Assembly (NCBI GenBank): GCA_965204945.1
Contig: OZ242022.1
Span: forward strand, 2,138,369 to 2,202,368
Source of the DNA: Limisphaerales bacterium
GTDB taxonomy: Bacteria > Verrucomicrobiota > Verrucomicrobiia > Limisphaerales > AAA164-E04
DNA length: 64,000 nt
Direction of reading: 5' to 3'
Shown here in pieces: positions 26,969 to 61,246 of the stretch (positions are counted from its first letter, which is position 1; each line of letters opens with the position of its first letter). The position numbers and the translations under genes are program-made. Under the pieces are notes generated by a model that was given only the letters and a program-made list of their open reading frames with translations, was not told the origin of the DNA and searched no databases.

Positions 26969-28774
26969 TTAAAATTCAAGTATCTCTTCCAGTAAATCAA
27001 ATATTACTTGGAAATGCTTAAAGTCGTCTTTTGTTCCGTATTTGCAAAGCCAATCGTAGAGGTTGGTTTTTTCATCTTTATTAACAGTCCACTCTTCAAC
27101 GACGCTTTCCTTTTGCTCCCGTACAGTTCTTTTATGTCCTTCTTCGATGTCTATGAATGCAGGTTTGAATTCTTGCGCTTTTTCTAGAGTTTTTCTCAAA
27201 TAAGTTTTCAATGCCTTTTTTCAATGGGTGATTTTCATGTAGGTGGATATGCCGCTTAAACACGTTTCCTTTATCGTCCTTGTTTGGTTTATCACAATCA
27301 TAGAGAAGAATTATTTTCTGCTTAATTAGTTTGCAAAGTTGAGGAGTGATATTTTTCCAGATTTTATCCAAATTCCCAAAACCATTTCCGTCTCTTAATT
27401 CAACTCTTTGGAGTAATTCTTTCTGACCAAGCAATTCCGCAGCTTTCTCCAAATATTTTACATCAGTTTTGCCTTCCATGAAAACGAGAGGTTTTTGAGC
27501 ATTTTCAATTTCTTTTCGTATATCCTCTTTAAACTTTTTGGTTTCGGCGAAGGCTCGATAGGCATCGCCGAATTCGCTAAATTCTTCCGGGCTAATTTCT
27601 TGACCTTGTGGCAACCTGTAAAGCGCAAAACCATCTTCTCCAAAAGTTTTCTGCATTCCAAGAATAAAGAGCAGAGAGTGAGTTGTGACAATAAATTGGA
27701 CGCGTGGAGATATTTTCATCAATTCGGAAAGCACATCATACTGGTGGACAGTGTGCAAGTGTAAGTCAATTTCATCTACAACAACGATGCCTCGAATTTC
27801 CTCGGTTTTAGTGAAACCTTCCCCGGCCAAATCAAAATCTCTGGGGATAGAGAAAAATAGATTTAGCAAAGAAGTTTCTCCGCTAGATAATTGGAAAATA
27901 TTAGGAACAAGAATTTGACGATCTTGCATTAAAGCAACCCCTCTATCGTGTCTCGAATAAACTCCAAATCCTAGATTTTCATTTGCTTGGAAAATAATTC
28001 GGAGAATAGAAAGAATTTGACGATAAAGAGATGTTGTTGGTCCACTGGATCCTAGAAATATAGGGACATAATAAGGATCTATTGATATAGGCAGCTCTTT
28101 AATTTTGATTTCATAAACAGAACTGTCGTAATTTAAGCCAAATCCCCAGTTTCGATTATCGTGGAGAGGCGAGTGTTGAATAATTTTACGGTTAGAATGT
28201 CCATGTATATGACTTAAAGTTGTGTACTCAGCTTTGGTTTTTAAGTTTTCTTCATTTAACCATGCCGGCTCTTGAAATCTATTGGGAGGAAAATAGAGAA
28301 TACAGTTATTTCGAAAAATCTCTTTTAGGCTGTCCTTTTGCGCAAATTCTAGAAAAGTACATCCCAGCCAACTTTGTTCCGTATTGGGTATATCTTTCCA
28401 TAATTTATTTATACTATTGATTGAAAACGAGGGCTTTTGAGGAAATTTTTCTTTTGTACGATCTAAGACTAATTCTTGGAAATATATATCACGTTCAAAC
28501 TCTATTTTCGCGCAAGAGTGTTCACTTCCAGATTTAATATAGGTAGGAGATCGAAGTTTGTACACTTTTCCTTTTTTACTTCGCTATTTTCAGGATAGAC
28601 GATGCCCTGGGCATCCATCAAACCGTTGACGATATGGGATAGTAAAATGCTTTTGCCAGAACCATTTTGTCCGACTAGCAAAACGGGTTTGGGATTGTCT
28701 CCGTTGAAGGGAAAAACAATTTCTAGGTGGTCAATTGGTCCATAGTTTTCAATTTGGGTTTTCTTTGCGTACAT
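26969..28774 (-). pseudogene. OLD/ABC-type AAA ATPase with a C-terminal TOPRIM/DUF4435-like region, broken by two frameshifts
   Basis: Walker A GQNGSGKS (ORF 28502-28774). LSSGETSLL, VVVDEIDLHLH, IVTTHS and FMEGKTD (ORF 27132-28565). The tail continues in a third frame (26969-27211). Low GC. Confidence 0.7.
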
Positions 28775-38944: not shown

Positions 38945-39706
38945 CTACAAAGTGGCGGCTTGCCGTTGTTTCTTTTTCGTTATACGGCGATGAAAGAAAA
39001 CAAAACCCAAAGCAAACAAGCCAAACACAAGCGCATATTCCTCCGGCTCAGGCACCAAAGCCCTTGGCTCGCCGGACACTACCAAACGCAATCCGCCCGA
39101 ACTCGGAGCCCCCAAAATGCCGGCGGCCACAAAATTCGGGCCGACGTTATAAGTGTAAAAATACTCGCCCGCAGCGGTGAGCGTGAAGTTGCCAATGGAA
39201 TAGGACATAGTGCCTTGCCCGCTCCAAGAAACAGCGTCGCTGGCAGAATAACTCAGCGCCGAAGAGCCGGCCACGCGAATGCCCACATAATCAATGGAAA
39301 GATTGTTGAACAAATAGATGTCGCTGATGGATCGGGTGTTAGTTGCGGTGGCGGATTGGAAGGTGATTTGCGGATTCCAGTCTGAATTGGGATTGGCCGT
39401 CAAGGAATGATAGCCTGCTGTCGCGTAGCGGGAGGGAGCGCTGGCGGTGAGGAATTGCGTGCCGGAGGGAAGGCCTAAGCTATTGGTGTTTCCGGCGAAG
39501 GGACTAAGAAATCCTGTGTTATCGGTTCCTGTGGATCCAGCGGTGGCCGTGGGGATGCTGCCGGTGCTGAAGGGAGTGGAGGAGCCGGAGAAAGTCCAGA
39601 TGGTTGTGTTAGTGTCGCTTTGGAGAGGATTGATGGTGAGGACAAGTTGCGCCTGCCCCTGCTCCCCAGAAGCCAAAGAAAGCGCCGACACTACCAACGC
39701 CACCAA
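38945..39706 (-). CDS. PEP-CTERM sorting-domain surface protein; the annotated part starts at a TTG, and the probable native ATG at 39807 is out of frame
   Basis: C-terminus VPEPEEYALVFGLFALGFVFFHRR (PEP motif, TM helix, basic tail). S/T/G-rich beta-type body. Confidence 0.8.
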   Translation of the reverse strand: MVALVVSALSLASGEQGQAQLVLTINPLQSDTNTTIWTFSGSSTPFSTGSIPTATAGSTGTDNTGFLSPFAGNTNSLGLPSGTQFLTASAPSRYATAGYHSLTANPNSDWNPQITFQSATATNTRSISDIYLFNNLSIDYVGIRVAGSSALSYSASDAVSWSGQGTMSYSIGNFTLTAAGEYFYTYNVGPNFVAAGILGAPSSGGLRLVVSGEPRALVPEPEEYALVFGLFALGFVFFHRRITKKKQRQAATL

Positions 39707-39719
39707 AAGAGACCCATGC

Positions 39720-39782
39720 CCGCTTGCCGCTTGCCGCTTGCCGCTTGCCGCTTGCCGCTTGCCGCTTGCCGCTTGCCGCTTG
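39720..39782 (-). repeat. 9 perfect tandem heptanucleotide units: CAAGCGG on the coding strand, CCGCTTG on the + strand
   Basis: Counted base by base: nine perfect units spanning 39720-39782. Confidence 0.95.
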
Positions 39783-40096
39783 CATATTGTAAGGATAGCT
39801 TTTTCATCACTTCAAACATAAAAATAACTGCTCAATAACCGTTCTCTTGACTTTCCTTAATGAAAGTTTCTTTATTTATAGTCTCTTTTCCGCCTTGAGT
39901 CAACCCTCAAATCCAAAAAAGTGAAAAAGTGAAGAAAATGGAAAAAATTGGTGGGAGGCGAAAGAAATTCGCCCAAAAAGCACGCAATCTCCACTGCTCC
40001 ACTGCGGGAAGGAAGAGAGTTTTCATGGGCAGCGGCTTGCGGTTGGTCGAGTGGAGAGAGGGGAATCATTTTTGGCGGGGCGGGCGCAAACGATGT

Positions 40097-40975
40097 CTAT
40101 CCTACGGACAATGCGGCGGAGGTGATTTCCAACAGCTCGTTGGTAATGCTGGCTTGTCGAAGTTTGTTGTATTCCAAGGTGAGGTCTTTGATTAACTGGT
40201 TGGCGTTGTCCGTGGCGTTCTTCATGGCCACCATGCGGGCGGTGTGTTCACTGGCTTTGCACTCCAGCAGGAGTTGGTAGATTTGGTAGTTCAAGTAGTG
40301 GGGCAATAAGTTGCCAAGCACTTCGCCGGCGGCGGGTTCAAATTGAAACTCTAGGGGGTTTGTTCTGCATTCGATCTCGCTTTTTTCGTCTGTCAGATTT
40401 GTTTCGAGGGCGGCAATCTCGCTTATCGGCAAGAATGGACGCCGTTCGGGACGCTGGTTAAGGGTGGAGATGAAGTTGGTGAACAGCACGTCGACTTGAT
40501 TGACGTCGTCTTTCAGAAACAACTCCGAAGCATATTTGGCGATGGCTCGCGCATCGGCAAATTCAGGCACGTCCTTGCAAGTGAATTCGGCGGAAAGCTC
40601 GCGCCGTGTGCGAGCGACGAATTGCGAGGCTTTTCTTCCTACGGCCACAAATACGGCGGATTCCGCCTCTGCTTTGGCCGCTTCTCGCAGCAGATTGGTG
40701 TTGAGCGCGCCGCACAAGCCTTTGTCCGTGCTAATAACGATCAAGGCGCGCTTTCCCTTTTCTTTTTTCTCGATTAAAGGATGGGTGAAGTCTCCGGCGT
40801 TGGCGGTGACTTCGCTCAGCATTTTATTCATGAGCACAACATAATGGCGCCCGTTTAGGGCGGTTTGCTGGGCGCGCCGCATTTTGGAGGCGGCTACCAT
40901 TTGCATGGCTTTGGTGATTTGCGCCGTGTTTTTGACGGACTTGATGCGCCGCCGAATGTCTCGCGTGCTGGGCAT
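40097..40975 (-). CDS. atpG: F1 ATP synthase gamma subunit
   Basis: MPSTRDIRRRIKSVKNTAQITKAMQMVAASKMRRAQ ... ITNELLEI. Confidence 0.95.
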   Translation of the reverse strand: MPSTRDIRRRIKSVKNTAQITKAMQMVAASKMRRAQQTALNGRHYVVLMNKMLSEVTANAGDFTHPLIEKKEKGKRALIVISTDKGLCGALNTNLLREAAKAEAESAVFVAVGRKASQFVARTRRELSAEFTCKDVPEFADARAIAKYASELFLKDDVNQVDVLFTNFISTLNQRPERRPFLPISEIAALETNLTDEKSEIECRTNPLEFQFEPAAGEVLGNLLPHYLNYQIYQLLLECKASEHTARMVAMKNATDNANQLIKDLTLEYNKLRQASITNELLEITSAALSVG

Positions 40976-40981
40976 GAGAGT

Positions 40982-42517
40982 TTATTGGAAAGTCCGTCCG
41001 AATTCTTCGAGCGCGTCTTTCAAGGCCGCGGCAACTTCGTCGGTCAATTGTTCGCGCTCGGCAATCAAACCCAGCACGTTCCGCTTCCGCGTTTGCAGGT
41101 ATTCGACGAGATTTGCCTGAAAATCCTTGATTTTGTCCACCGCTGCTGAATCCATAAAACCGTGTTGCACAGCGTAAAGAACCGCCACCTGCACTTCCAC
41201 CGGCACGGGGTTGTATTGCGGCTGTTTGAATACTTCGACGATTCGCTTGCCTCGTTCCAGTTGCGCTTGGGTTTTGGCGTCCAGATCGGAGCCAAATTGG
41301 GCAAAGGCCGCTAGCTCGCGAAACTGGGCAAGATCAAGTTTGACGCGGCCGGCCACTTGCTTCATGGCCTTAATCTGCGCGGCGCTGCCTACGCGCGAGA
41401 CGGATAGCCCCACTGAAATCGCCGGCCGAATGCCTTGATAAAACAAGTCGGTTTCCAAGTAAATTTGGCCGTCGGTAATCGAAATCACGTTTGTGGGAAT
41501 ATAGGCCGAGACGTCGCCGGCTTGGGTCTCAATAATCGGCAAAGCCGTCAACGAGCCTCCTCCGTATTTTTCCCCCACTCGGGCAGAGCGTTCCAGCAGG
41601 CGGCTGTGCAGGTAGAACACGTCGCCGGGATAAGCTTCCCGGCCGGAAGGACGCTTGAGAACCAAAGACACTTGGCGGTAGGCGACCGCGTGTTTGGATA
41701 AATCGTCGTAAATAATTAACGCGTCCATGCCGTTGTCCATGAACCACTCGCCCATAGCGCAGCCGGCAAAGGGAGCGAGGTATTGATTGGTGGCCGAGTC
41801 CGACGCCGAAGCGCAAACCACCGTGGTGTAAGGCATGGCGCCGGCGTCCTCCAAAGTGCTGATGACTTGCGCCACGTTGGACTGCTTTTGCCCCACGGCC
41901 ACGTAAATGCAGTGAAGCGGGCGAAAGTCCCGGTCTTCGTTTTCTTCCGCCGCCCGATTCAAACGAGCCTGACTGATAATGGCGTCGATGCAGATGGTTG
42001 TTTTGCCGGTGGAACGGTCGCCAATGATCAACTCGCGCTGTCCGCGCCCAATCGGAATCATCGCGTCCACAGCCATAATGCCGGTTTGCACCGGTTGGGA
42101 GACGGATTGGCGTTTGACAATGCCGGGGGCGATCTTTTCCACTGGATAACTGGCTTCGGCGTCAATCTTCCCCTTGCCGTCTAACGGACGCCCCAAAGCG
42201 TTAACCACTCTGCCCAGCATGGCCTTGCCCACCGGCACTTGCAGGAGCTTCCGGGTGGTTTTGACTTCTTGCCCCTCTCTGATGCCGGTGTAATCGCCCA
42301 GCACAATGGCGCCAACTTCGGTTTCTTCAAGGTTGAGCGCAAGCCCCACCGCGCCTTCGCCAAAGTCAATCATCTCGTTGAGCATCGCGTCCGTCAGGCC
42401 TTCAATTCTGGCGACTCCGTCGCTAATTTCCCGAACCACGCCAACGTTCTCGCGGGCGACTGTTCTTTTGGCGCCGCGAATCTGCGATTCGATTTCCTGC
42501 AATAAACTGCTGCTCAT
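40982..42517 (-). CDS. atpA: F1 ATP synthase alpha subunit
   Basis: GDRSTGKT Walker A, with alpha-subunit colinearity throughout. Confidence 0.95.
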
Positions 42518-43762: not shown

Positions 43763-44335
43763 TCAAGAGAGTTTGGAAGAAACGATCTCGCGATTGGCCT
43801 CTTCGGCCAGACGTTTTTGATCCTCCGCAGTGAGGGCTTTGCCGATGACTTGAGCCGTTGTCTGAACGACTAAGCTGCCGATTTCTTGCTTCAAATCGGC
43901 CAGCATCCGGGCGTGATCCGCGGCGGCGGCCTCGCGGGCTTGGGAAAGAATTTGCTCCGCCTGCGCCATCGCTTTTTGGCTCTCTCTTTCCTGAACTTGC
44001 GCCGCCGCCGTCCGGGCTTCTTCGATCATCTTGTTTGCCTGAACATTGGCGTTTTCCAAAACCCGCTTTCGGGCGGCTTCTGCGCTGACCAGCTCTTGTT
44101 TGATTTTATCGGCGTTGGCCATGCCTTCGGCGATTCGCCGACGCCGTTCCTCCAGCAGGGTCAAAATAGGTTGGTAAGCGTATTTTTTTAGCAACAACGC
44201 TACCACGACAAAGGCAATCAGTTGGGAAAAAAACAACCCCCAAGTGACGCCGAATCGATCCAAAATCTCGACAAGGCCACCCTCACCGCCCGATTCCACC
44301 GCTGCCGCCGCAAAGAAAATGAACGAAGAACTCAT
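43763..44335 (-). CDS. atpF: F0 ATP synthase b subunit
   Basis: Single N-terminal TM helix followed by a long A/E/R/K-rich helix typical of subunit b. Confidence 0.85.
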   Translation of the reverse strand: MSSSFIFFAAAAVESGGEGGLVEILDRFGVTWGLFFSQLIAFVVVALLLKKYAYQPILTLLEERRRRIAEGMANADKIKQELVSAEAARKRVLENANVQANKMIEEARTAAAQVQERESQKAMAQAEQILSQAREAAAADHARMLADLKQEIGSLVVQTTAQVIGKALTAEDQKRLAEEANREIVSSKLS

Positions 44336-44723: not shown

Positions 44724-45629
44724 TCAATCGCCGGAACCATGCGCGTGTTCTTCGCCATCGTGTCGGCAAATCAGCATCGTAAACACAGAAGTTAGCAACG
44801 CAAACACCAACGCCTGAACCAGCCCCACCAACAACTCCAAAAAATAAAACGGCAACGCAAAAAGCCAGCCAAACCAAAAACCGCCCATGTGCAACATCGT
44901 CTCCAAAATGTTCTCCCCGGCAAAAATATTTCCATACAAACGGAACATCAAAGCCAACGGACGCACCAAAATCGACACAATCTCAACCACCCCCACAAAC
45001 AAAAAAATCGCCACTAAAAAAATGCCCAAAAAACTGGCGCCGTGCCCCTTCACCTGAAAAATATGCGCCGCCACGCCGCCCACGCCATTTGCTTGAAACG
45101 CCCACACAATCCAAAACGCAAAAAAGGCCAACGCCATCGCCGCCGTCATGTTCAAATCCGCATTCACCCCGCGCAACAACGGTTCCGTCAAGTGAAACTC
45201 CCCGCCAGAATCCTCGTTTCCCCAGCCAATCGTCCCCACGCCGGGCAACAGCCCAAACCAGTTGGAAAAGAGAATAAAAATGAAAACCGTCGCAAAAAAC
45301 CAAAAAGTCTTCTTCACCAGCTTTGCGCCCAAAATATCCTCAAAAAATCCGTAAAGCGACTCCACCAACCACTCCCAAAAATTCTGCCAACCCGACGGAA
45401 TCAGCTTGGCCTTGCGAACCGCCAACTGCGAAAACAAAATCAACAAGCCGGCCACAACCCAAGTAACCAACATCGAATTCGTCACAACCAGCGGACCCAG
45501 TTCAAACAAACGCACCGCATCCGGCGTCAAACCGTGCCTTGCCCCATCGCCATCCGCTTCCGCTCCCAGCCCCAAAACCGGAAATCCCAGCAGAACGAAA
45601 ACGACAATCCACAATCTCAACGCAAGCAT
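44724..45629 (-). CDS. atpB: F0 ATP synthase a subunit
   Basis: LFSNWFGLLPG and RLYGNIFAGE (essential Arg context). ATG at 45629 is preferred; the ORF is open to 45716. Confidence 0.9.
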   Translation of the reverse strand: MLALRLWIVVFVLLGFPVLGLGAEADGDGARHGLTPDAVRLFELGPLVVTNSMLVTWVVAGLLILFSQLAVRKAKLIPSGWQNFWEWLVESLYGFFEDILGAKLVKKTFWFFATVFIFILFSNWFGLLPGVGTIGWGNEDSGGEFHLTEPLLRGVNADLNMTAAMALAFFAFWIVWAFQANGVGGVAAHIFQVKGHGASFLGIFLVAIFLFVGVVEIVSILVRPLALMFRLYGNIFAGENILETMLHMGGFWFGWLFALPFYFLELLVGLVQALVFALLTSVFTMLICRHDGEEHAHGSGD

Positions 45630-46167
45630 CGCGCGATGTCGACAAACCTTTCGCAAAACAAAAGCCAAGCCGAGAAAAATCGCCTTCCCGGCCAAAGACG
45701 GAAAACACTGCCGCATCGGGAAAACCTTCGCAAGCCTTTTTTAAGATTTTTCCCAAAAATCCATCCCGCCAACATCTTCTCCCGCCTTGCCATTCGCCGC
45801 CGCTATTCTCCGTTGATCTCTTGCCTGCCTCTACCCTTGCCGCGCTTTTAGTCGATTGCGGCAACAATACCCCTCGTCAACGCATCCAATCTCTCCTCAA
45901 AACCCTATCGACCCAAAACCCCCGCAAGCCGCCCGCAAAATACGATTTCATTTCCGAAGTATGGAAAAAGAAAGAAAGGATATTCTCAATTCCTAATTCG
46001 TAATTGAAAATCCATCACTCCCTCGCTCCCGCCTCCCGCAAAATTTTGATAACTTCGTCATAATGTTCCCTTCTATGCTTTGCCGCCACCAATTCGCTAC
46101 CTTCTCCTCTCTTTACAATTCGGCGGCAAAATTTCTATTCTCAAAATTGAGATTTTGGCGAAGTTTC

Positions 46168-46588: not shown

Positions 46589-47491
46589 TCAATCCCCACC
46601 CATCCCCACCCAATGACGGCTCATAATATCGGACTGAACCAAAGTCGTGGCGCATCCGCAAAACGGATCCAACACAATGTCGCCCGAATTGCTGCTCGCC
46701 TTGATAATCCGCTCCAACAACGCCTGCGGCTTCTGCGTTTTTTGTCCCACTCGTTCTTTTGAGTTAGGGCTAATAATCGGAATGTCCCAAGTACTCCCTA
46801 CAACAAGATGACTGCTTGGCGTCCGCTTGATTGGCTTTCCCGATGCGTCTTTCTTTACCACTGTTTTTCCGTCTTCATCCTTTGCGCTGACATATTGGGA
46901 TGGGTTTGGCGTTAGATTGGGGACAAGAATGGGGTTGATTTTGGTCTTTTTGCTTTTTGCGTAGAACAGGATAGTGTCGTGCAATTTTGGGAAAGATTTC
47001 TTTGATTTGACTGTCCACCGGTTGTAATGCCACACGATTTCATTTCTAAAATTGTCTTTGCCGAAGATGGCGTCCATTAGGAGGCGCAGGTAGGCGTTGG
47101 CGCTAGGGTCGCAGTGCAGGTAAATGCTGCCGGTTTCTTTGAGCAGGCGGCGGCATTCAATCAAACGAGTGGCCATCATGGTCAAGTAGGCCTGCATTCC
47201 TTTGCCGTGAACTTGCCCTGCGGCGCGAGCCACGTCGTAGGCTTTTTGGTTTTGGTGCGCCAGCAAGCCAAACTCCACTTCCCGCAGGTCGTCAAACGTC
47301 CAGAAGTCTTTGAAAGAAGTTCCGCTCAAAGACTGGTATAGCCTTTTGCTGTTGAACGGCGGGTCGAGGTATATCAGGTCAATCGTCCTCGAATTCATCG
47401 CCCGCATTACGTCGAGATTGTCTCCGATGAAGAGCGTTCTATTCTTCCAATTTACCGCTGTAGCAATGACTGCCTTTTCTAAATTACTCAT
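46589..47491 (-). CDS. beta-class N6A/N4C DNA methyltransferase
   Basis: Motif IV LDPPFNS near the N-terminus and motif I VLDPFCGCATT near the C-terminus. Ends abruptly inside the conserved W.GI(D/E) tail. Confidence 0.85.
   Translation of the reverse strand: MSNLEKAVIATAVNWKNRTLFIGDNLDVMRAMNSRTIDLIYLDPPFNSKRLYQSLSGTSFKDFWTFDDLREVEFGLLAHQNQKAYDVARAAGQVHGKGMQAYLTMMATRLIECRRLLKETGSIYLHCDPSANAYLRLLMDAIFGKDNFRNEIVWHYNRWTVKSKKSFPKLHDTILFYAKSKKTKINPILVPNLTPNPSQYVSAKDEDGKTVVKKDASGKPIKRTPSSHLVVGSTWDIPIISPNSKERVGQKTQKPQALLERIIKASSNSGDIVLDPFCGCATTLVQSDIMSRHWVGMGGD
46593..46612 (-). repeat. perfect 10-bp tandem duplication (TCCCCACCCA x2 on the + strand)
   Basis: Read base by base. Removing one copy joins the methylase frame to the HNH frame. 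Confidence 0.95.
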
Positions 47492-49344: not shown

Positions 49345-50361
49345 ATGCAACTGACGACCGGCGACATTGCCTCCCGCCTCCAAGGCACCTTGCGGGGCGA
49401 TCCCAAAGTGCCGATTGTCGGCGTCGCCTCGGCCAAAGAAGCCATGCCGGGACAAATCGCCTTTGCCGAAGACCGTCGGCTTTTTCAGGACGCTTTGGAA
49501 GGCGGCGCTTCAGCCGTCGTCGTTGCGGAATTTTACAAAACCGCGAACAAAACGCTAATTCAAGTCGCCAACGTCCGCGTCGGCCTTGCGCAACTTCTGG
49601 AATTGTTTCATCCTGAGGAAACCTTTCCCGCCGGAATGCACGCTTCCGCCACCGCTTCCCAAAGCGCCCAAATCGATCCCAGCGCTTCCATTGGCCCCGG
49701 TTGCTCCATCGGACCCGGTTGCTCCATCGGACCCAAAGCCGTGCTTTACGGAGGCAATCATCTTGGCGCTAACTGCCGAGTCGGCGCCGAAAGCCGGCTG
49801 TTTCCCAACGTCGTTCTTTACGCTGACACCGTGCTGGGAGAACGCGTCCGCATCCAAGCCGGCTCGGTCATCGGCTCGGATGGCTACGGCTATGTCTTTG
49901 ATGGAGAAAAACACCGAAAAATCCCGCAGATCGGCGGCGTTCTCATCGAAGACGACGTCGAACTGGGCGCCAACGTGACCGTAGATCGCGGCGCCTTCGG
50001 CAAAACCATCATCAGAAAGGGCGCCAAAATTGACAACCTCGTGCAAATCGCCCACAATGTAATAATTGGAAAACACTGCGTCATCGTCGCTCAAACCGGC
50101 ATTGCCGGCAGCGTCACTATTGGAGACCACGCCGTCATTGCCGGACAAGTCGGCATCGCCGGCCACCTCAAAATCGGCAACAACGCCATTATCGCCGCCC
50201 AATCCGGCGTCATGCGCGACGTCCCAGACGGCCAAAAAGTCTTCGGCTCACCCGCCCAAGGCGACCGCGAAGTCAAACGGCAACTGCTTGCCCTCCGCCA
50301 ACTGCCCGACTTGCTCAAACGATTCCATCAACTCGAAAAACAGCTCGGCAACCAAAAATAG
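49345..50361 (+). CDS. lpxD: UDP-3-O-acylglucosamine N-acyltransferase
   Basis: LpxD-type N-terminus followed by long hexapeptide repeats. Confidence 0.9.
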
Positions 50362-52921: not shown

Positions 52922-54106
52922 ATGAAACACAACCGCAACTCTCATAGCGGCTTTGGTCTGCCTCTTTTCATCTCATTCAACGAACTGGCTTGGTTGGCCG
53001 TCGTCGGCGTTGTCCTCATCGCCGCGCCGCAACTAGTCAAAGGGAAACAACAAAGCTCGAACTCGCAAGAAGAGAAGAAAGAACAACTACAACACCAAAA
53101 ACAAGAACCAGAACCCACTTTGACAGAGGAAGATAAGTTGCGCCGCCAACTCAAAGAAGCAGAGCAAGAATTAGCCGAAGCGGAAAATCAACATTCCAAA
53201 GCGGAGCAAAAGTTAGAAAGTAAAAATACCGAGTTGCTTAGAAAAATTGATACGCTCGAAAAGCGACTCAAAGAAACGAAGCAAGAATTGGCCAAAACAC
53301 AAGATCGACTCGAAGAGGCAGAGCAAAAGTTAGAAGTTGCGGAAAGCAAAAATGCCGAGCTGCTGGAAAAAATCAATACGCTTGAAGAGCAGTTGAAAAA
53401 CCGGGAACAGGAACTGAAATTGGCTTTGGCAGAGAAACACAAGTTGCACGACCAACTGAAAGAAATGGCGCCAAATCAGCCTGAAAGAATGGAGCAAGTA
53501 GTGCGCAAGGAACTATTAGGCTTGGAAGGAGAATTAGAATACGTCGGACTTTTGCTAGACCGCTCCTCCAGCATGAAAAACGACAACCGATGGGAAAAAT
53601 CCATTAAGGTTGTGGAAACATGGCTTCAGCACTTGCCCATAGAAAACTGCTTCCTGATCCACTATAATCACGAATTCAATACCTTTCCCGCCAATCGATA
53701 CCTTCCTGTTTCCGGCCCGAATGGGATAAGAAATCGAAAATGGCTAATTCAACACATTCAAGACGTCCAACCGGCCGGAGGCACTCATACTATTGAGGCG
53801 CTGGCAAAAGCCTATAAGGATCCGAATCTGCAAACCATCATTCTCTTCACTGATGGTGAACCAAGACTTTGGGACGAAAATTCACAAGGCCGACTCTCGC
53901 AAAACAAAACCGATGAAGGCAATTATCAAACGGGAAGAAGTGTCAGTAGAAACATGAAAGAAATTCTCCAGTTATGCCGCAATGAGAAACAAAGACAGGG
54001 AGTGACAGTGAACGTAGTTGCCATTGGAGATTATTTTGACGAAGAGTTTGGCGAGTTCCTCAGAAATGTGGCGAAGGAAACGGACGGCGCCTTCATCGGC
54101 CGCTAA
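52922..54106 (+). CDS. TM-anchored coiled-coil protein with a C-terminal vWA (MIDAS) domain
   Basis: TM segment LAWLAVVGVVLIAA; duplicated AEQKLE..ELL.KI.TLE..LK coiled coil. MIDAS residues DRSSSM, GGTHT and FTDGEP. Confidence 0.75.
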   Translation: MKHNRNSHSGFGLPLFISFNELAWLAVVGVVLIAAPQLVKGKQQSSNSQEEKKEQLQHQKQEPEPTLTEEDKLRRQLKEAEQELAEAENQHSKAEQKLESKNTELLRKIDTLEKRLKETKQELAKTQDRLEEAEQKLEVAESKNAELLEKINTLEEQLKNREQELKLALAEKHKLHDQLKEMAPNQPERMEQVVRKELLGLEGELEYVGLLLDRSSSMKNDNRWEKSIKVVETWLQHLPIENCFLIHYNHEFNTFPANRYLPVSGPNGIRNRKWLIQHIQDVQPAGGTHTIEALAKAYKDPNLQTIILFTDGEPRLWDENSQGRLSQNKTDEGNYQTGRSVSRNMKEILQLCRNEKQRQGVTVNVVAIGDYFDEEFGEFLRNVAKETDGAFIGR

Positions 54107-54231
54107 TTTTCTCTAATCCCACAATGGAAAAAAGACTGGAAAAGAAACCTCCTTCAATTCACAAACAACAACCGAAAAGAAAACCAAGAAACAAAAACCT
54201 TCTTCGCTTTGGTGGTGCCAAGCCTTCCCTT

Positions 54232-57225
54232 TTATTCCCTCTCCTTATCCGGCGAATCCTCCTTGCTTTCTTCATCCTTCTTAAAAGTTTCGTTGAGGAT
54301 TTGGTCGTGACTTTTCTCCATCTTTTTTTGTTTGTCGATGTCAGAAAGTTTGTCCACTCTTTCATTCATGCGCTGTTTTACTTCTGCTTCACCAAGGGCG
54401 CGGAGTTTCTCTTGAAACTGCTTAATCAAAGTCTGCTCGTCGTTTTGTTCAAGGTATTCGCGCAATTCCTTTTCGTCTAACGATCCCTTGCGCTTAATCA
54501 AGAGATGCTTATTCAGACCGTCGATAACCTGAACGAATACAATGTCTTCGTTTCTTTTCTCAAACGACTCAGGCGAAAGATCTAGTAAAGATTCTATCCA
54601 CTGGTGAAGATTCTCTAAAGATTCCTTACGTTGAAGGTTGAAGTAGTTTTCCCCGTGTTTATGGGTAAAATTAGTGCAGACCGGGGGATTTTCTTCGGAT
54701 TTTTCCAATTGTTCGCTTGCGTATTTACAAATGACGAAGTCGGAGATGGCCAGCCCTATCTCTTCCCGATAGATAAAAATGAAGTGATCTAATGGAGAGA
54801 ACTCTGATGTGAACTCTCTTCCTCCCGGCGCCTCTTTATTGGCAAGTAGGGACAATTCTTTGCCAGCCTGGGAATCTTTGCAGAAAATGAAGTTTGGCGA
54901 CTGCGTGGCCGCCAAACTCAGAAGATCACACCCGTTAATGATTTCTACGTGGGGAAAAGAGCTGCGGACAAGCAATGCAATATTAAGTTGTTTGAGGTCG
55001 GAGATGGCTTTTTTGCCGACTTGAAATTTGTCAGTCACCCCTTGGCTGATCTGGTCAAAGGTTTTGTCCACGCGGAAAACGAGGCGATCCGTATTTTGGT
55101 TTTTAAGAATCGACATCAGGGGCTCTCCTTTCAGAAACTCATCGCGCAATGACTTGATGTCGTAGGTCTTTATAATTTCAGCGACACCAAGTTCCACGTC
55201 ATCAACAATACTGGATGGTTCTCCCCGCGTAATAATCGACAAGTTGTTGGCGCTTGGAAGTTCTAACAGCTTTTCTTTTTGCATTTTGCAAGTGGTCCGG
55301 AAAAGTGGCAACCTACCACTTTGGGAGGCGATGTCTCTGGACAGTTTTTCCAAAAACAATTGGCAATCGGCAAGAATGCCGTGGAGATAGTGATCTCGAA
55401 TTTCGTTCAGCCGATCATTCGCCTCCCGTTGCCATTGATTCCAGACGACATTGCGAACGGTTTGCTGATATTCGCTCTCCACTTTGGTCCTTTTCTCTTT
55501 GGAAAAGATTCGTAGGAAAAGATCCCAATTTCGTTGTTTCCGGCGAATCCATCGTTTCCGGAAATCACCGGAGCCGTATTTGTTTAGCACCAAGTCTGAA
55601 GAAAAGGAAAATGGAGGAAGGTTTGCCGGAAGTTGCGCAATCGCAGTCTTTATTTTTTGAAGAATTCCCTGGATGTAGGTTTTCGTCTCCGCATTAGTGT
55701 GATCGTTCATGTAGCGGATCACGATTTTTCGGATGTCTTCTTTCAAGTCTTTGGCTACCAAAATCTTGGCATTGTCAATCCTGCGGTAATAATCTCCATT
55801 GGGGTTTAGACGGTCTCCCAGTGTATTGCTTCGGACTGGAAATCCTGCCATGAAGTTGTCGATCATTTCCCATCCAATAAGGCTGAATTCGGCAAATTTA
55901 CTTCCAAAAAGACCGTTGATTTCGGCCGGCAGATCAAGATTGACTTGGGCGTTTGCCACAGTGCCAATCAAGCTCCCTTGGGCTCGCTCGTAAGAAGCGC
56001 CCCAGTCATTCTGAACTCCGTCATCCGCTTTGTTGGGATCAATATCTGAATTATCAAGCAAACCATTAATCATGCGGATAGCAAGTTGCCGATTGATTGC
56101 CCGGGAGATGCGGTTTCGAGGATACCAGATAGCGGAAAGCCCGAAGGAACTGAAAGCGCGCATGTGGCCTTTATTATTGGGTTGGAGATAGCCTTCAACT
56201 TGTTTAAGGTTTACGCGGATCGCAGCTTTTTTATCGGCAAGCCCAGCTACAACTTCGGTAAAGAGGTTCATAGCGCACATTCGTCTGAGATCCTTTGGAT
56301 TATCCCCCTTAAATCCGCCATTTTCTTGGTTTTTCATAGATTGCAAATAGACCGTGTCAAACGGGGCGTCCAAAGTGTCAATTTCCTGACCGTCGGGGAA
56401 TTTTACATAATAGCGGCTTTTTTCTAGGTAATAAAAGTCGAGTTCACGTAGCGCCGTCCAGCAGTTAACGCTGGGGACTTTGTACTTTGGATCTTTGCTA
56501 TGAACATCGTCCATGACGGTGAAAAGACCGATGACTTCCGGACGACCTCCCTCCATCATAGCGCTCTCTCTTCGGATGCCGAGCAGTTCGCTGACGAAGT
56601 AGGCCACGTCGATAAAGGCGCCGCTGCAAGTGCCGCCGCAAAGGGTGCCGCAGATGTAGACCTTCGGTTGGATTTTAACGAGAGATTTCGCGGGAAGGTC
56701 AGTGCCGGGGTGCTTGTCTGGAAAATATTCCTCGCGCAAGAATTTGTTTGCGGCAAGAATATTACCCGCATCGTGAATTGCCTCAATGGACTCGATTAAT
56801 TCACGGCGAACCTTATTTTTCCAGTTTTTCCAGAGGCAGAGACGGCCGGCTTGCCGAAGGTTTCCAGCGCCGGCCTCGTAGCTTTTCTGCCCCCGTTCAA
56901 TGAGTCGATTGTCCAGCCAATCTTTCAGGCTGGAGTCTTGTCCATCGCTTCCCTTCATCTGTTGTTGGACGTTGTCCACGTCGGCAACGGTGATATGAAG
57001 AGGCTTAATTTCCTCATAAGGTTCTGGATTGTGGGGAATAAATCCGTCATCGGGCTCTTTATTCTTGTCCGTTTCGATAGCCAGATAACGAAAACAGGGA
57101 AGTCCAGCTCGTCCAAATTCTTCGAGCACGAATTTTCTCAGGTCTTGAAGAATTTCCCAGCCATTAGTGCCAAGCCCGATAAACAAGCAAGGCCTGATAG
57201 TGAATTTGTCGTTGTCTTCTGCCAT
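54232..57225 (-). CDS. 997-aa tubulin/FtsZ-superfamily-like GTPase (Tubulin_2-type) with a long helical C-terminal region
   Basis: T1-like FIGLGTNGWEIL and T4-like ICGTLCGGTCSGAFIDVAYFV (compare GGGTGSG of tubulin and GGGTGTG of FtsZ). Confidence 0.65.
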   Translation of the reverse strand: MAEDNDKFTIRPCLFIGLGTNGWEILQDLRKFVLEEFGRAGLPCFRYLAIETDKNKEPDDGFIPHNPEPYEEIKPLHITVADVDNVQQQMKGSDGQDSSLKDWLDNRLIERGQKSYEAGAGNLRQAGRLCLWKNWKNKVRRELIESIEAIHDAGNILAANKFLREEYFPDKHPGTDLPAKSLVKIQPKVYICGTLCGGTCSGAFIDVAYFVSELLGIRRESAMMEGGRPEVIGLFTVMDDVHSKDPKYKVPSVNCWTALRELDFYYLEKSRYYVKFPDGQEIDTLDAPFDTVYLQSMKNQENGGFKGDNPKDLRRMCAMNLFTEVVAGLADKKAAIRVNLKQVEGYLQPNNKGHMRAFSSFGLSAIWYPRNRISRAINRQLAIRMINGLLDNSDIDPNKADDGVQNDWGASYERAQGSLIGTVANAQVNLDLPAEINGLFGSKFAEFSLIGWEMIDNFMAGFPVRSNTLGDRLNPNGDYYRRIDNAKILVAKDLKEDIRKIVIRYMNDHTNAETKTYIQGILQKIKTAIAQLPANLPPFSFSSDLVLNKYGSGDFRKRWIRRKQRNWDLFLRIFSKEKRTKVESEYQQTVRNVVWNQWQREANDRLNEIRDHYLHGILADCQLFLEKLSRDIASQSGRLPLFRTTCKMQKEKLLELPSANNLSIITRGEPSSIVDDVELGVAEIIKTYDIKSLRDEFLKGEPLMSILKNQNTDRLVFRVDKTFDQISQGVTDKFQVGKKAISDLKQLNIALLVRSSFPHVEIINGCDLLSLAATQSPNFIFCKDSQAGKELSLLANKEAPGGREFTSEFSPLDHFIFIYREEIGLAISDFVICKYASEQLEKSEENPPVCTNFTHKHGENYFNLQRKESLENLHQWIESLLDLSPESFEKRNEDIVFVQVIDGLNKHLLIKRKGSLDEKELREYLEQNDEQTLIKQFQEKLRALGEAEVKQRMNERVDKLSDIDKQKKMEKSHDQILNETFKKDEESKEDSPDKERE

Positions 57226-57263
57226 AATGCTTTAAATAAAATGAAAAAATTCGTCTGTTCGGC

Positions 57264-59432
57264 TTAAAAAGTCTCCGGTATTATCTCCTCGGAAATGTCA
57301 ATAGTCAAGGTTCTTTTGGCGCCAAAATCATCCGTGATTTCGACCGAATCTGAAAACTTGAGCCAATGAGGTTTGCCGTCGTTTCCCGGCGAGAAAAAAC
57401 CAAGATGCGAATGCCGTTGGAAATAGCAACCCTTTGCGGGAATATCGCACACAAATTCATCGCCGGCGCCATCATTTGTCGCATCCGTTTGGCTCAGGTA
57501 GATTTTGTCCTGCATTTCCAAAACGAAAGTTTTCAACGGCTTGAGGTTTTGGCCGGCGTTGGGCTTGTTGTCTTTTTTCGACTTCGAAACTTCGGAGATT
57601 TCCACGCGCATTTTCTTGTTGGGCGGCACAGGCGGCGCGTTGCGGGCTTTTCTGATCTTTCCCCAAAATTTTGCCGAAACGAACAAGAGGAAAATTGCAG
57701 GAATCAGAATCCACCAGAAACGCTGCAACCAACCTTTTGGAGGCTCTGGACTAATGGCAATCAAAAGACTGGCCGAGGATTGCTCTTCGCCGTCGCCTTG
57801 CACGATTAGCGTAATGGTTTTGTCACCCGGCGTTTGGAAAGTGAATTCAGGATGTCTTTCCATGCTAGAACTTTCATCGTTGAAGTTCCACCGCCAAGAT
57901 TGAATCAAGCCGATGGACTCGTCCAGAAAGCGGACTGTTTGCCCCACTCCTATTTTAGAAGGGCTATCCAAACCAATCGCCGCTTGGGGAGGAGGAATGG
58001 GCGGAGGAGGAATAAATAAAGTTGGCGGCGACGGCAGAATAGTCAGGCTATGGATTTTGCTACGAATTTCTTGGCCGTTGGAAAGTTTGCCGACCAGTTG
58101 AACTCTAAAAGTCTTTGGATCATCCCCATCGTTTTCATATTGATGTTGCGGCGATCTTTCCGCGCTGGTTTGGCCGTCGCCAAAATCCCAGCGGAAGGAC
58201 ACAAAGTTGCCTTGGGACTCGTTGGCAAATTGCACAACTTGATTGTGATGGTATGTTTTTGGATTCGCTCGGAAATTCACAATGGCGGACGGTTCGCGGA
58301 CAATGAGAGTTTGTGGATCGGAAGGAAACCACTTGCCGTTTTCATTCTGCGCGGAAAAGACAACGGAAAACTCGCCTTCGGAAGCAAACTTCCATTCAAA
58401 ATCCAACTCCCTGCCTTTGATTTCGTCATCGATCTCCCACTTGTAAGCAACGGGATGTCCCAAACTGCGCCCGTAAAACCGGACGGATTGCATAGATGAA
58501 GGATTGAGGGGTTTCCAGTGGAGAACTTCGGAGCGGATCGAAGGCGGCTGATACGGATCAGAAACCTGAATAGTTACTTGCGAATGTTCTTGACCACCTT
58601 GCGCCCCTTCTACTTCAAGACGGATGGCATGCTCTCCGCTGGTTGTAAAAATGTGCTTTAAAACTTTGTTGGTAGAAACCGGTTGGCCGTTCACGCTCCA
58701 ACTATAAGTTTTGTAAATCGAGGAAGAGTTTTCATAAGCGATCATTTCCTTGCCAACACGAAGGCCCTTCGGCCGCCATTCAACGACCGGAGACAACAAA
58801 ATCTCAAAGTTGGGATCGTGTCTGAGGCGAAAACCGGAATGGTCTCCTATATCTCTCTGGGTTTTTACATCCATCTTGAAGTCGCCGAGTATGACGAGGT
58901 GACCTTGTATGCTCTTGCCGTCCACCGGAAAACCTTTCACAGCTTCATTGAAAGTGGGGACATCTTCATTCTCTTCGGTGTTTTGCCCGTCGGTGAACAC
59001 TCTTACCTGCACTGTTTGTCCGGGATTTTCGTTTGCATAGCGCGTGGCCACCTCCAATGCCTTGCGCAAAGTCGTCCACAAATGTGTCTTTCCAGTTTTA
59101 TGCGCTTCTGCTTCTTCATCGATTCCGTCGCACCAGACAAGCGCCGGCTGATGATCCAATTTGTTTCGGAAAATGAATTCGCGTTGCGATTGGATTCCAG
59201 AGTTAAACGAAACCAACGTGAGCCGCGATCCCAAAGGCAAGGCTTGAAGCCAGCTTTGTAGCGCATTCTGCACCGTTGTAATCCGATTCTGCGAATCGCT
59301 CGGAGAAACGCTTCTTGTCATCGACCCGGACGTATCCACCACAATGACATAATCCGCCGCTTGCAAAGACCCGCCGGCCCAAAACGCGAACGCCAGCGAC
59401 AACAACACTCTCAAAACAATTCGATACATCAT
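57264..59432 (-). CDS. secreted vWA domain, three or four PKD/Ig domains, a TM helix and a cytoplasmic tail
   Basis: Signal peptide; MIDAS VVDTSGSM..T..FTDGQ. PKD-like WSVNG.., FRWDFGDGQTS and WRWNFNDESS. TM segment WWILIPAIFLLFVS followed by a ~130-aa tail. Confidence 0.8.
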   Translation of the reverse strand: MMYRIVLRVLLSLAFAFWAGGSLQAADYVIVVDTSGSMTRSVSPSDSQNRITTVQNALQSWLQALPLGSRLTLVSFNSGIQSQREFIFRNKLDHQPALVWCDGIDEEAEAHKTGKTHLWTTLRKALEVATRYANENPGQTVQVRVFTDGQNTEENEDVPTFNEAVKGFPVDGKSIQGHLVILGDFKMDVKTQRDIGDHSGFRLRHDPNFEILLSPVVEWRPKGLRVGKEMIAYENSSSIYKTYSWSVNGQPVSTNKVLKHIFTTSGEHAIRLEVEGAQGGQEHSQVTIQVSDPYQPPSIRSEVLHWKPLNPSSMQSVRFYGRSLGHPVAYKWEIDDEIKGRELDFEWKFASEGEFSVVFSAQNENGKWFPSDPQTLIVREPSAIVNFRANPKTYHHNQVVQFANESQGNFVSFRWDFGDGQTSAERSPQHQYENDGDDPKTFRVQLVGKLSNGQEIRSKIHSLTILPSPPTLFIPPPPIPPPQAAIGLDSPSKIGVGQTVRFLDESIGLIQSWRWNFNDESSSMERHPEFTFQTPGDKTITLIVQGDGEEQSSASLLIAISPEPPKGWLQRFWWILIPAIFLLFVSAKFWGKIRKARNAPPVPPNKKMRVEISEVSKSKKDNKPNAGQNLKPLKTFVLEMQDKIYLSQTDATNDGAGDEFVCDIPAKGCYFQRHSHLGFFSPGNDGKPHWLKFSDSVEITDDFGAKRTLTIDISEEIIPETF

Positions 59433-59497
59433 AACAATAAAAACAATCAATTTACACTTTCGGCAACAAAACCACAGCCGGCAATGGCTTTGTTCGG

Positions 59498-61246
59498 TTA
59501 AATGCCGTCGGCGTGGGGCCAGATTTGGACAATCGCTTGCACTAATCGCTCGCTACGTTTCACAATTGTTGTTTCGTCCCATACTTCCGGAGCATTATCC
59601 AACAACTCTTTGTTGAGATACAATCCGCTGTGTTGGTGCAATGCTTTCTTTTTGTTTTCCCATGATTTGTTGGGGATAGCAAAATTCAATCTTTTGCTTG
59701 CCAGAGTTAAATTTCCAATGAAATCGACGAATCCATCTAAATTACCATTGGGGTTTACTGCAAAGCCTCCCTGCGGCAAAATACGTTCAACGGTTAGCTC
59801 GCTGGTATCGCCAAGCGGCTTTGCAGACATGGGTTTGCTTGTTGCGATGGCTTCAAAAACCATCATTTTCTGCGCTTTACTTCCGGGCATTGAAAAATTA
59901 GTGAGATAAGAAATCACTTCGTCGTCGTCGGGCCAGCGATTGCCTCCAAATTTCTTGTTCAAAAATTGGATTATGACTTTATCCGTTGGTTGACTTTTTT
60001 GCGCTTCCAAGGGTTTTGCCATATCAGTAAAAAGATTCTTCAGTCCTGTCCCGTATATTTTACACAGCATTCGCCGCACTAGATAGCTTTCCAATGCGCG
60101 AGCAATTCTTTGCCATTCGTCTTCGGAAACGTCGTTCGTGTAAAGCCACAGCAAGGGCGGCATGATTACGCCGATTTTCATCGTCTTAATTCGCTCTAGA
60201 AACAATGCTATTCTTTCTCCCGGCGGCTCGTCCTCCTTAATTTTTCCCGGCAACTTGTTCTTCTCAATTTTCCAATAAGCTAATCCTGATTCCTTAATGT
60301 CTTCTGCAACCTCTTCAATGTTTGGTTGGAACTGAATGTAGTTGCGAAACTCTTCCGCCGTACGATCAAAGGTAACGTATTTGCTGATGCGCATCATGAT
60401 CCAATAGTTTAGGAATCTGTCGAGGCGGATCTGAGAATCTTTCCCTTGTCCATCTAAAAAATGCCACCAGATATCCTCAAACATTCCAAACAGCTGCTCC
60501 GCCTTCTGCTCGTCGTCGATAACGTTGGCTTTGTACATTATCGTGCCTTTGATAAGATCGGCTTGGGTCAACGGTTTTCCGCGTGCATTAAGGGTTTCAA
60601 AAATGACGTACGGTTCTTGTCTGGGTGCCAAGATAATGGACACCACTTTTAACTGCTTGACGAGGGCTTTGTGCAAAGCCGTCGCTCTGACATCGACGTT
60701 TGCATGGCGGCTGACCCACTCGAGCACATTTTCATGGAAGTAGTTGTAAGCTTTTGTGATGTCGTGGGACTGATGCTCTAATTTAATTTCATCTCTAATG
60801 ACTGCCCGAAAAACTCGTCGGTCTCTGTTGGACTGGACAATTTTAGTTTCGTTGAGAGGGTCGTTCCCAGTTCGCTTTCGGTCATTGAGTAAAAGCTTGT
60901 CCAAGTTGAATTTTTTGGTATCGCTCAGCGATTTTTGAAACGCCTTTTGCGTGGCTTTGATCAAGAGTTGCAACGTCGTGAGCCTTTGCTGGCCGTCCAC
61001 TACAAAAATTTGGCTAACTTTGGCATCCGCCGATTTCATCGGTTGCAGAAGGATGGACCCCATAAAGTGAGGAAGTAAATCTTTTTGACGATATTTGAGG
61101 ATGCGATCCGCCATTTTGTGGGCGTCTTCCCATAATGGTTGCCATTGTTTTTCGCTCCACGCATAAGGGCGCTGGAACTGCGGAATGCGATAAGAAACGG
61201 AATCGTCAAACAGGTCGTCAATCCCTTGAATTTTTGCGTCCATCAT
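59498..61246 (-). CDS. DUF262 plus DUF1524 (GmrSD-like) protein
   Basis: N-terminal YRIPQFQRPYAW and VVDGQQRLTT. The C-terminal ..VERILPQ...IGNLTLASKRLN matches the DUF1524 layout but has Arg where the HxxP His is expected. Confidence 0.8.
   Translation of the reverse strand: MMDAKIQGIDDLFDDSVSYRIPQFQRPYAWSEKQWQPLWEDAHKMADRILKYRQKDLLPHFMGSILLQPMKSADAKVSQIFVVDGQQRLTTLQLLIKATQKAFQKSLSDTKKFNLDKLLLNDRKRTGNDPLNETKIVQSNRDRRVFRAVIRDEIKLEHQSHDITKAYNYFHENVLEWVSRHANVDVRATALHKALVKQLKVVSIILAPRQEPYVIFETLNARGKPLTQADLIKGTIMYKANVIDDEQKAEQLFGMFEDIWWHFLDGQGKDSQIRLDRFLNYWIMMRISKYVTFDRTAEEFRNYIQFQPNIEEVAEDIKESGLAYWKIEKNKLPGKIKEDEPPGERIALFLERIKTMKIGVIMPPLLWLYTNDVSEDEWQRIARALESYLVRRMLCKIYGTGLKNLFTDMAKPLEAQKSQPTDKVIIQFLNKKFGGNRWPDDDEVISYLTNFSMPGSKAQKMMVFEAIATSKPMSAKPLGDTSELTVERILPQGGFAVNPNGNLDGFVDFIGNLTLASKRLNFAIPNKSWENKKKALHQHSGLYLNKELLDNAPEVWDETTIVKRSERLVQAIVQIWPHADGI

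Follow-up and report, generated by a model that had tools for sequence, protein, structure and literature searches.

A heptamer repeat in the signal-peptide region of a PEP-CTERM-like gene of Limisphaerales as a probable translational on/off switch

Introduction

Repeat-driven phase variation is known almost wholly from host-adapted pathogens such as Neisseria, Haemophilus, Helicobacter and Campylobacter. Here we describe a candidate for such variation in Limisphaerales, an order of Verrucomicrobiota. The window, by which we mean the whole 64,000-nucleotide (nt) stretch that was analysed (contig OZ242022.1, positions 2,138,369 to 2,202,368), carries on its minus strand a gene for a PEP-CTERM-like protein in which nine copies of the heptamer CAAGCGG lie between the ATG start codons and the hydrophobic core of the signal peptide. 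From the comparison of loci rather than of reads, we propose that this tract is probably a slipped-strand translational switch of the Opa type, OFF at its present nine units and ON at seven or ten, and that the gene has dozens of paralogs with switches of the same kind.

Results

A non-triplet repeat lies between the start codons and an intact reading frame

The minus strand holds exactly nine perfect CAAGCGG units at 39782-39720, as counted by regular expression, and Tandem Repeats Finder places the tract at 39720-39783 (period 7, 9.1 copies, 100% matches, score 128) as the sole long simple repeat of the window. Doublets of the heptamer occur in eight overlapping matches at the locus, as against none in 100 dinucleotide-preserving shuffles. 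The frame opened by ATG 39807-39805 reads MKKLSLQY, runs through the tract as ASGKRQA repeats and stops at TAG 39693-39691; a second ATG, at 39819-39817, lies in the same frame and yields MFEVMKKLSLQY. The product of this frame has 42 amino acids (aa). On the far side of the tract, the long open reading frame (ORF) at 39706-38945 has 253 codons from TTG 39706, stop included. Its frame is also open upstream across the whole tract (..KRQAASGHGSLLVALVVSALSLASGEQGQAQ) and contains no ATG there. A perfect tandem tract of non-triplet unit is in this way placed between ATG 39819/39807 and the hydrophobic core.

The distance from ATG 39807 to TTG 39706 is 101 nt, or 2 mod 3, and none of the frames of the heptamer contains a stop codon. 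When we simulated tracts of 0-14 units, the full-length product (272-300 aa) was obtained at 1, 4, 7, 10 and 13 units only, and all other unit numbers gave peptides of 21-81 aa; in the simulation, gain or loss of units toggles the ATG frame against an otherwise intact 253-codon ORF. The simulated precursor with a single unit starts MFEVMKKLSLQYASGHGSLLVALVVSALSLASG-EQGQAQ, a signal peptide of normal make-up. Judged from the translations, a complete signal peptide would be formed only with an ATG in frame, and from the internal TTG or GTG codons its n-region would be missing.

A preliminary description of this DNA, made from the letters without database searches, had already traced the frame from ATG 39807 through nine units to the TAG, the long frame that passes through the repeat with TTG 39706 as its first start, the offset of 2 mod 3 with ON states at seven or ten units, and the lack of stop codons in the heptamer. 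Pattern matching, translation and the simulation bear these points out. The description had overlooked the second in-frame ATG, and it had held against the TTG the absence of a Shine-Dalgarno sequence, an observation that is true and does not discriminate: no such sequence is found at the ATGs or at the TTG and GTG starts, and the region upstream of the ATGs is AT-rich, as elsewhere in the family. The coordinates of all elements are collected in Table 1.

Table 1. Elements of the PEP-CTERM-like locus, in window coordinates
Element	Position	Strand	Basis
T-rich tract (UP-element-like), upstream of the -35-like box	39904..39948	minus	similar blocks, e.g. CTTTTTCTTCACTTTTTTCATTTTTTT, before TTGAC in most paralogs
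-35-like hexamer TTGACT	39898..39903	minus	family conservation
-10-like hexamer TATAAA, 17 nt past TTGACT	39875..39880	minus	family consensus TAnAAA; assignment inferred from conservation
Leader coding segment MFEVMKKLSLQY with ATGs 39819-39817 and 39807-39805; signal-peptide n-region when in frame	39783..39819	minus	translation, homologous leaders
Nine perfect CAAGCGG units, proposed slipped-strand switch	39720..39782	minus	repeat finding, shuffles, simulation
TAG ending the 42-aa ATG-frame product at nine units (OFF state)	39691..39693	minus	translation, simulation
Hydrophobic core LLVALVVSALSLASG and predicted cleavage region, then EQGQAQ; holds TTG 39706, GTG 39703 and GTG 39691	39665..39709	minus	long-ORF frame; cleavage site putative
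Long ORF: beta-rich mature domain and C-terminal sorting tail	38945..39706	minus	translation, homologs, AlphaFold model
PEP-CTERM-like tail: VPEPEE, hydrophobic helix ALVFGLFALGFVFF, basic cluster HRRITKKKQRQ	38948..39055	minus	translation; invariant part of the family alignment

A narrow paralogous family carries non-triplet tracts at the same site

A homolog search returned 200 homologs at E<=1e-3, and when 1.84 billion representative proteins were searched with a profile, 323 relatives came back at the same threshold, a small number for so large a collection, from which we conclude that the family is narrow. A species-representative genome collection gave at least 149 confirmed hits, and 80 of these loci were fetched. 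All 80 come, in roughly even numbers, from two complete chromosomes entered as 'MAG: Limisphaerales bacterium' (MAG, metagenome-assembled genome), OZ241891.1 (4.23 Mb) and OZ251460.1 (4.52 Mb); the window gene lies on a third Limisphaerales chromosome, of 4.31 Mb.

In about 65 of the 80 loci the same site, immediately before the conserved hydrophobic core, is occupied by a repeat tract, and the tracts fall into heptamers, octamers, poly-G and poly-C. The heptamers include TCGGGCA (3-14 units), GAACAGC (20 units) and CACGCAT (6 units), and the octamers GGCAAGCG (2-4 units), GACAAGCG (3 units) and CAATCGGT (5 units), while homopolymers, found in about half of the paralogs, span 9-24 bases for poly-G and 10-18 for poly-C. 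No genuine tract with a unit of 3, 6 or 9 bases was present at the site among the 80 loci. Peptide repeats that are simply tolerated would be expected to favour triplet-compatible units. The tracts are also highly concentrated at the 5' ends of genes: we counted 56 in 27.2 kb of 5' ends versus 31 trivial ones in 430.6 kb of flanks, the latter being tetra- to hexamers of three to four units, mostly tetramers of three, plus one C11. The preliminary description had proposed a scan for other such tracts in 5' gene ends; they are present in the family, and the 64-kb window has no other long tract.

A conserved leader ORF, such as MKEQKHLNGRKANLSKF, stands before each tract, and the window leader MFEVMKKLSLQY is related to the paralog leaders MLESMRTFSLSL, MFESMKTFSLQS and MSKHSLQY. 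The hydrophobic core and cleavage segment form the most conserved N-terminal stretch of the family, and the ORFs downstream of the tracts are intact across paralogs. Gene callers often begin family proteins internally (MVSALSL.., MEQSQAQ..), including paralogs in the window's own genome, because the leader ATG is out of frame while the downstream ORF is intact. Our frame tally for heptamer and octamer loci stood at 4 in frame, 33 out of frame and 1 ambiguous in its raw form; with six spurious repeats dropped and the ambiguous locus counted as in-frame, the leader ATG is in frame at 5 of 32 such loci (5 of the 21 that have at least three units). Among homopolymer loci the corresponding figure is 10 of 32. 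Taken together, the sequences point to a lineage-restricted family with dozens of copies per Limisphaerales genome, nearly all of which appear to have a non-triplet tract of their own.

Individual copies show further variety at this site. At least eight paralogs (L007, L020, L025, L027, L031 and L033-L035; around 2430-2500) have two GGCAAGCG units and a leader, MLESMRTFSLSL, that is out of frame and ends ...ASGQAGL*, unlike the three-unit copies L026 and L032, which are in frame. The leader of L038 (2420-2470) contains three tandem copies of the 13-nt TTTTCGTTATCAC together with a single octamer unit, another non-triplet repeat at the site.

A promoter-like module precedes the leader

Most family members share a module made of a T-rich block, TTGAC(T/A), a 17-nt spacer and TAnAAA, located about 70-100 nt upstream of the leader ATG. 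TTGAC(T/A/G/C) occurs in 70 of the 81 loci scanned, some of these matches being incidental and lying inside leaders or gene fragments, and the 17-nt spacing to the second hexamer is kept in 47 of the 70. The module of the window gene (TTGACT, 17 nt, TATAAA) matches that of the family. A strict consensus promoter scan did not call it, the last base of its -10 hexamer being A, and returned a single chance-level site inside the leader; we assign the promoter on the grounds of family conservation. The predicted transcription start, near 39868, precedes the two ATGs as well as the tract, and this predicted position argues against a start downstream of the repeat.

Four paralogs that are otherwise identical and have a plain in-frame signal peptide differ in a G-run within the promoter-like spacer, which measures 16 nt in L075 (2279-2310) and 18 nt in L076-L078 (2277-2310). 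The G-run could be a transcriptional rather than a translational repeat switch.

Tract length differs between otherwise identical loci

We looked for differences in tract length between closely related sequences. The proteins P0005 and P0121 are identical but for a seven-residue insertion, GHRASGI. At the nucleotide level, the alignment of their loci, L205 (ENA ERZ26167651) and L005 (OZ241891.1), has 5,741 columns, of which 5,720 are matches and 21 are gaps, with no mismatches; the gap corresponds to 7 versus 10 TCGGGCA units, both of which are in frame. Two more loci of the same assembly pair show no mismatches in about 11.6 kb, so that the two assemblies represent one clone; one of the two loci has 10.6 units in both assemblies, and at the other (L207 versus L052) the only difference is C15 (in frame, ON) versus C16 (out of frame, OFF). 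The clean change of three units (21 nt) between L205 and L005 is not a homopolymer-type error.

Within genomes, near-identical paralogs whose 150-nt upstream flanks are identical and whose 400-nt downstream flanks are at least 97% identical have 14, 3, 3 and 10 units, and another set has 10.6 and 4.6 units. Protein cluster 7 (P0115 and relatives), considered as further evidence of length variation, was uninformative: its length variants lie at the C-terminus rather than at a 5' tract.

In the two assemblies of this clone, the coding region of a family member has A8 in L206 (3490) and A7 in L041 (2746), and the gene call is split in one of the two. Either homopolymer noise of long reads or another frameshifting tract would account for the difference.

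The heptamer is also found outside the family

A DNA scan of metagenome contigs with three CAAGCGG units hit at least 120 contigs, and none of the 80 inspected had the window leader or a downstream PEP-CTERM ORF; the scan yielded no copy numbers for orthologs. Tracts of up to 16 units lie in at least 120 unrelated, mostly GC-rich contigs, from which it follows that CAAGCGG is not specific to the gene. Examples within the set L085-L164 of JGI metagenome contigs are L091:743-855, L164:8250-8333 and L100:779-855, often beside heptamer tracts of GCAAGCC, CAGCAAC or GGCGGAC. These metagenome heptamers look like a wider microsatellite class unrelated to this gene family.

The encoded protein and its neighbourhood

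The C-terminus of the protein, VPEPEEYALVFGLFALGFVFFHRRITKKKQRQ, has the PEP-CTERM pattern, and the label rests on the motif VPEPEEYALVFGLFALGFVFFHRR; the PEP-CTERM motif is found in the C-terminal segment VPEPEEYALVFGLFALGFVFFHRRITKKKQRQAATL, which makes up the invariant columns of the family alignment. The isolated tail scores 14.5 bits with TIGR02595, a near miss of its cut-off of 16, and the full protein has no match in NCBIfam or in Pfam, its mature domain being without a family. The preliminary description had called the gene PEP-CTERM outright; the motif is indeed present, and with TIGR02595 under its cut-off and Pfam silent, the protein is labelled 'PEP-CTERM-like'. AlphaFold gives a confident beta-rich model of the mature part (predicted local distance difference test, pLDDT, 84.7), for which Foldseek found nothing significant in PDB or BFVD (best E about 0.02-0.04, template modelling score, TM, about 0.2). 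Viral fibre knobs appeared among the Foldseek results as weak look-alikes, and we do not trust them as fold relatives. No exosortase was found among the 28 window proteins scanned.

The gene comes after atpB, atpF, atpA and atpG on the same strand, and its neighbours are ordinary chromosomal genes. The minus-strand ATP synthase genes encode subunits a (44724-45716), b (43763-44335), alpha (40982-42517) and gamma (40097-40975), with the PEP-CTERM-like gene directly after them; beta and epsilon genes were not noticed among the window ORFs scanned. Farther along, 52922-59450 holds an unusual cluster in which the gene for a 997-aa protein, tubulin-like in its N-terminal domain (PF13809; 54232-57225, minus strand), is flanked by a vWA gene (52922-54106) and a vWA plus PKD gene (57264-59450). 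Defence-type genes are dispersed in the window at 1213-3243, 27132-28565, 46589-47491 and 59498-61246, and their kinds are a ResIII helicase, an AAA_21 (AbiEii-like) ATPase, an N6/N4 DNA methylase and a GmrSD-type endonuclease. At 49687-49734, an 18-nt tandem repeat of 2.7 copies lies in frame in an LpxD-like hexapeptide-repeat acyltransferase gene, as expected for that fold.

Discussion

Our analysis of the locus and of its relatives supports the suggestion of the preliminary description that the CAAGCGG tract is a slipped-strand switch, both through the frame logic of the gene and through the comparative data from the family. In the mechanism that we consider likely, transcription would proceed from a conserved sigma-70-like promoter consisting of the T-rich tract, TTGACT, 17 nt and TATAAA, and translation would initiate at ATG 39819 or 39807, with the tract coding for part of the n-region of the signal peptide. 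Replication slippage would gain or lose 7-nt units. At 1, 4, 7, 10 or 13 units the ATG would be fused to the core LLVALVVSALSLASG and the mature protein, leading to export and presumably to sorting via the C-terminal tail, whereas at other unit numbers, the present nine included, translation would terminate after 21-81 codons and the gene would be OFF. A population would then express shifting subsets of surface proteins, because nearly every copy has its own non-triplet tract. We infer slippage at this locus, use of the ATGs, export and a selective benefit; as to what the benefit may be, escape from phages or grazers or a change in adhesion is our guess.

Several observations weigh against a switch. 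Start codons are available past the tract (TTG 39706, GTG 39703 and GTG 39691), and protein P0122 of the public collections (NCBI, ENA), which equals the window ORF, is annotated from GTG 39691. The fraction of heptamer and octamer loci with the leader in frame, 5 of 32, lies below the one-third expected for random tract lengths. About 11 two-unit paralogs and one single-unit paralog are all out of frame, and these copies look locked OFF rather than freely switching. A protein-based scan of JGI metagenome contigs found no close relative, and upstream of the tract the one colinear locus, L001, has a divergent fumarase gene and about two units, with no family promoter and no matching leader. Moreover, the comparison genomes are apparently long-read metagenome assemblies, and the A7/A8 difference in a coding region makes homopolymer lengths, and hence the poly-G and poly-C states, unreliable.

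Among the alternatives that these observations bring up, the one that survives best, and that we still consider improbable, is constitutive synthesis from one of the three internal codons, with the tract lying in a 5' untranslated region or a short upstream ORF, where its length is neutral or only tunes translation. The codons stand directly past the tract in the long-ORF frame, the P0122 annotation uses one of them, the ATGs likewise lack a Shine-Dalgarno sequence, and an out-of-frame ATG in many one- and two-unit paralogs would be harmless if the ATG were unused. The product of such a start, M-(V)ALVVSALSLASG, would however have no charged n-region and a shortened core. In addition, the long-ORF frame is open across both tract and leader, paralogs conserve the leader ORF together with its basic residues, and in-frame alleles form complete signal peptides such as MKEQKHLNGRKANLSKFGHRASGIG..KSALLAALIVSALSLVS. 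A restriction to units of 1, 7 or 8 bases is also hard to explain for a non-coding spacer, and the change between 7 and 10 units kept the frame.

Less probable again is that the gene is decaying or silent and its tract a neutral microsatellite, and that its out-of-frame paralogs are pseudogenes or a silent archive of recombination donors. The predominance of out-of-frame members and the OFF state of every two-unit copy would fit this idea, as would the existence of family fragments (L017, L028, L030 and L060). L001 is of interest here: it and the window are colinear over 4.4 kb, between window positions 39732 and 35426 (88% nt identity), and its homology to the window begins exactly inside the heptamer tract (L001:3900-4000), suggesting a rearrangement there. 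The breakpoint reflects either a rearrangement at the repeat or a short-read assembly chimera. The searches made turned up no ortholog that shares the leader of the window gene. Decay is difficult to reconcile with the 253-codon ORF and the ORFs of OFF paralogs, which are intact and conserved at full length, and with the conservation of promoter-like modules and leader ORFs in OFF copies. That tracts reach 20 units and are still perfect implies that slippage continues, and changes between clonal sequences restore or keep the frame.

That nine is an assembly or consensus artefact, the true count being 10 or 7 and the gene simply on, is very unlikely: the source is apparently a metagenome-assembled chromosome and two assemblies of one clone disagree at repeats, but most reads are longer than a perfect tract of 63 nt, whole-unit errors are uncommon in a high-coverage consensus, and such disagreement is expected from a length-variable population; a wrong count would alter the present state of the element, not its nature.

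The slipped-strand switch stays our preferred explanation for the tract, and we consider it probable. Programmed ribosomal frameshifting in OFF copies was considered and set aside, since neither the heptamer nor the octamer tracts show an evident slippery motif; slippage during transcription is possible for the long poly-G and poly-C class only. A more far-reaching picture, which we put forward as speculative and rather doubtful, is that these Limisphaerales possess one of the largest repeat-driven contingency systems known, in which a shared promoter and leader module, combined with a separate switch for each gene, would give a non-pathogen a combinatorially variable coat. In this picture, tracts may also be recombination joints at which 5' modules are exchanged, an idea suggested by the start of the L001 homology inside the tract, and two-unit copies might be a silent archive.

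If confirmed, the switch would make stochastic surface variation a strategy outside infection biology, with pressure from phages or grazers as a candidate driver, and would offer a handle on the role of the PEP-CTERM-like cargo class. It would also be a warning for annotation, as many genes would have been called from wrong internal starts on account of a consensus tract that is out of frame.

The mechanism itself is a known one, of the Opa and neuO type; new are the lineage, the PEP-CTERM-like cargo, the number of loci, and the fact that a single family uses four classes of repeat at one and the same site. The preliminary description had ventured that such a switch was undescribed for PEP-CTERM proteins or for this phylum, and our literature search, within the papers that it covered, agrees: it found no description of phase variation of PEP-CTERM genes, and nothing relevant on phase variation with Verrucomicrobia or Limisphaerales. 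In the genome paper on Akkermansia, homopolymers are noted solely for other genes (PMC3048395). In the PEP-CTERM/exosortase cargo class (TIGR02595; Haft et al. 2006, as cited in PMC3048395), proteins share with ours a PEP motif, a hydrophobic helix and a basic cluster, and occur in many copies genome-wide in environmental Gram-negative lineages; the present protein differs in falling just under the TIGR02595 cut-off and in having no exosortase among the window proteins scanned.

The closest parallel is with the opa genes of Neisseria, in which CTCTT pentamer repeats lie in the leader-peptide coding region (PMC3745409), as the preliminary description had pointed out. Both are multi-copy families of surface proteins with a non-triplet repeat in the signal-peptide region, whose unit number decides if ATG and mature protein share a frame. 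The opa copies switch independently, with most off at any time, and those of the present family would do likewise. There is no relationship in sequence or fold between the two. The unit here is 7 nt and in opa 5; the tract here codes for the charged n-region (ASGKRQA), in contrast to the hydrophobic core in opa; and the cargo has a PEP-CTERM-like tail, whereas Opa is a beta-barrel outer-membrane protein. The Limisphaerales family also has dozens of copies per genome compared with about 11 opa genes, uses 7-mers, 8-mers, poly-G or poly-C depending on the copy, and resides in an uncultured host that is not a human pathogen.

Heptanucleotide switches have been described in neuO of Escherichia coli K1 (PMC9659370) and in meningococcal pglE (PMC7157529), and these share with our locus a 7-nt unit in the coding sequence and, as proposed here, slipped-strand mispairing with an ON state at every third copy number. 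Unlike the family described here, neuO and pglE encode single cytoplasmic modification enzymes, their repeats do not lie in a signal peptide and are unrelated in sequence to ours. Finally, the poly-G and poly-C loci of Campylobacter jejuni, Helicobacter pylori and Neisseria (PMC4965091, PMC5084427) resemble the present system in that many surface-related genes have homopolymers in their 5' coding regions. In those pathogens the tracts are spread across unrelated genes, whereas nearly all of the tracts seen here are in one family, and the tract of the window gene is a heptamer.

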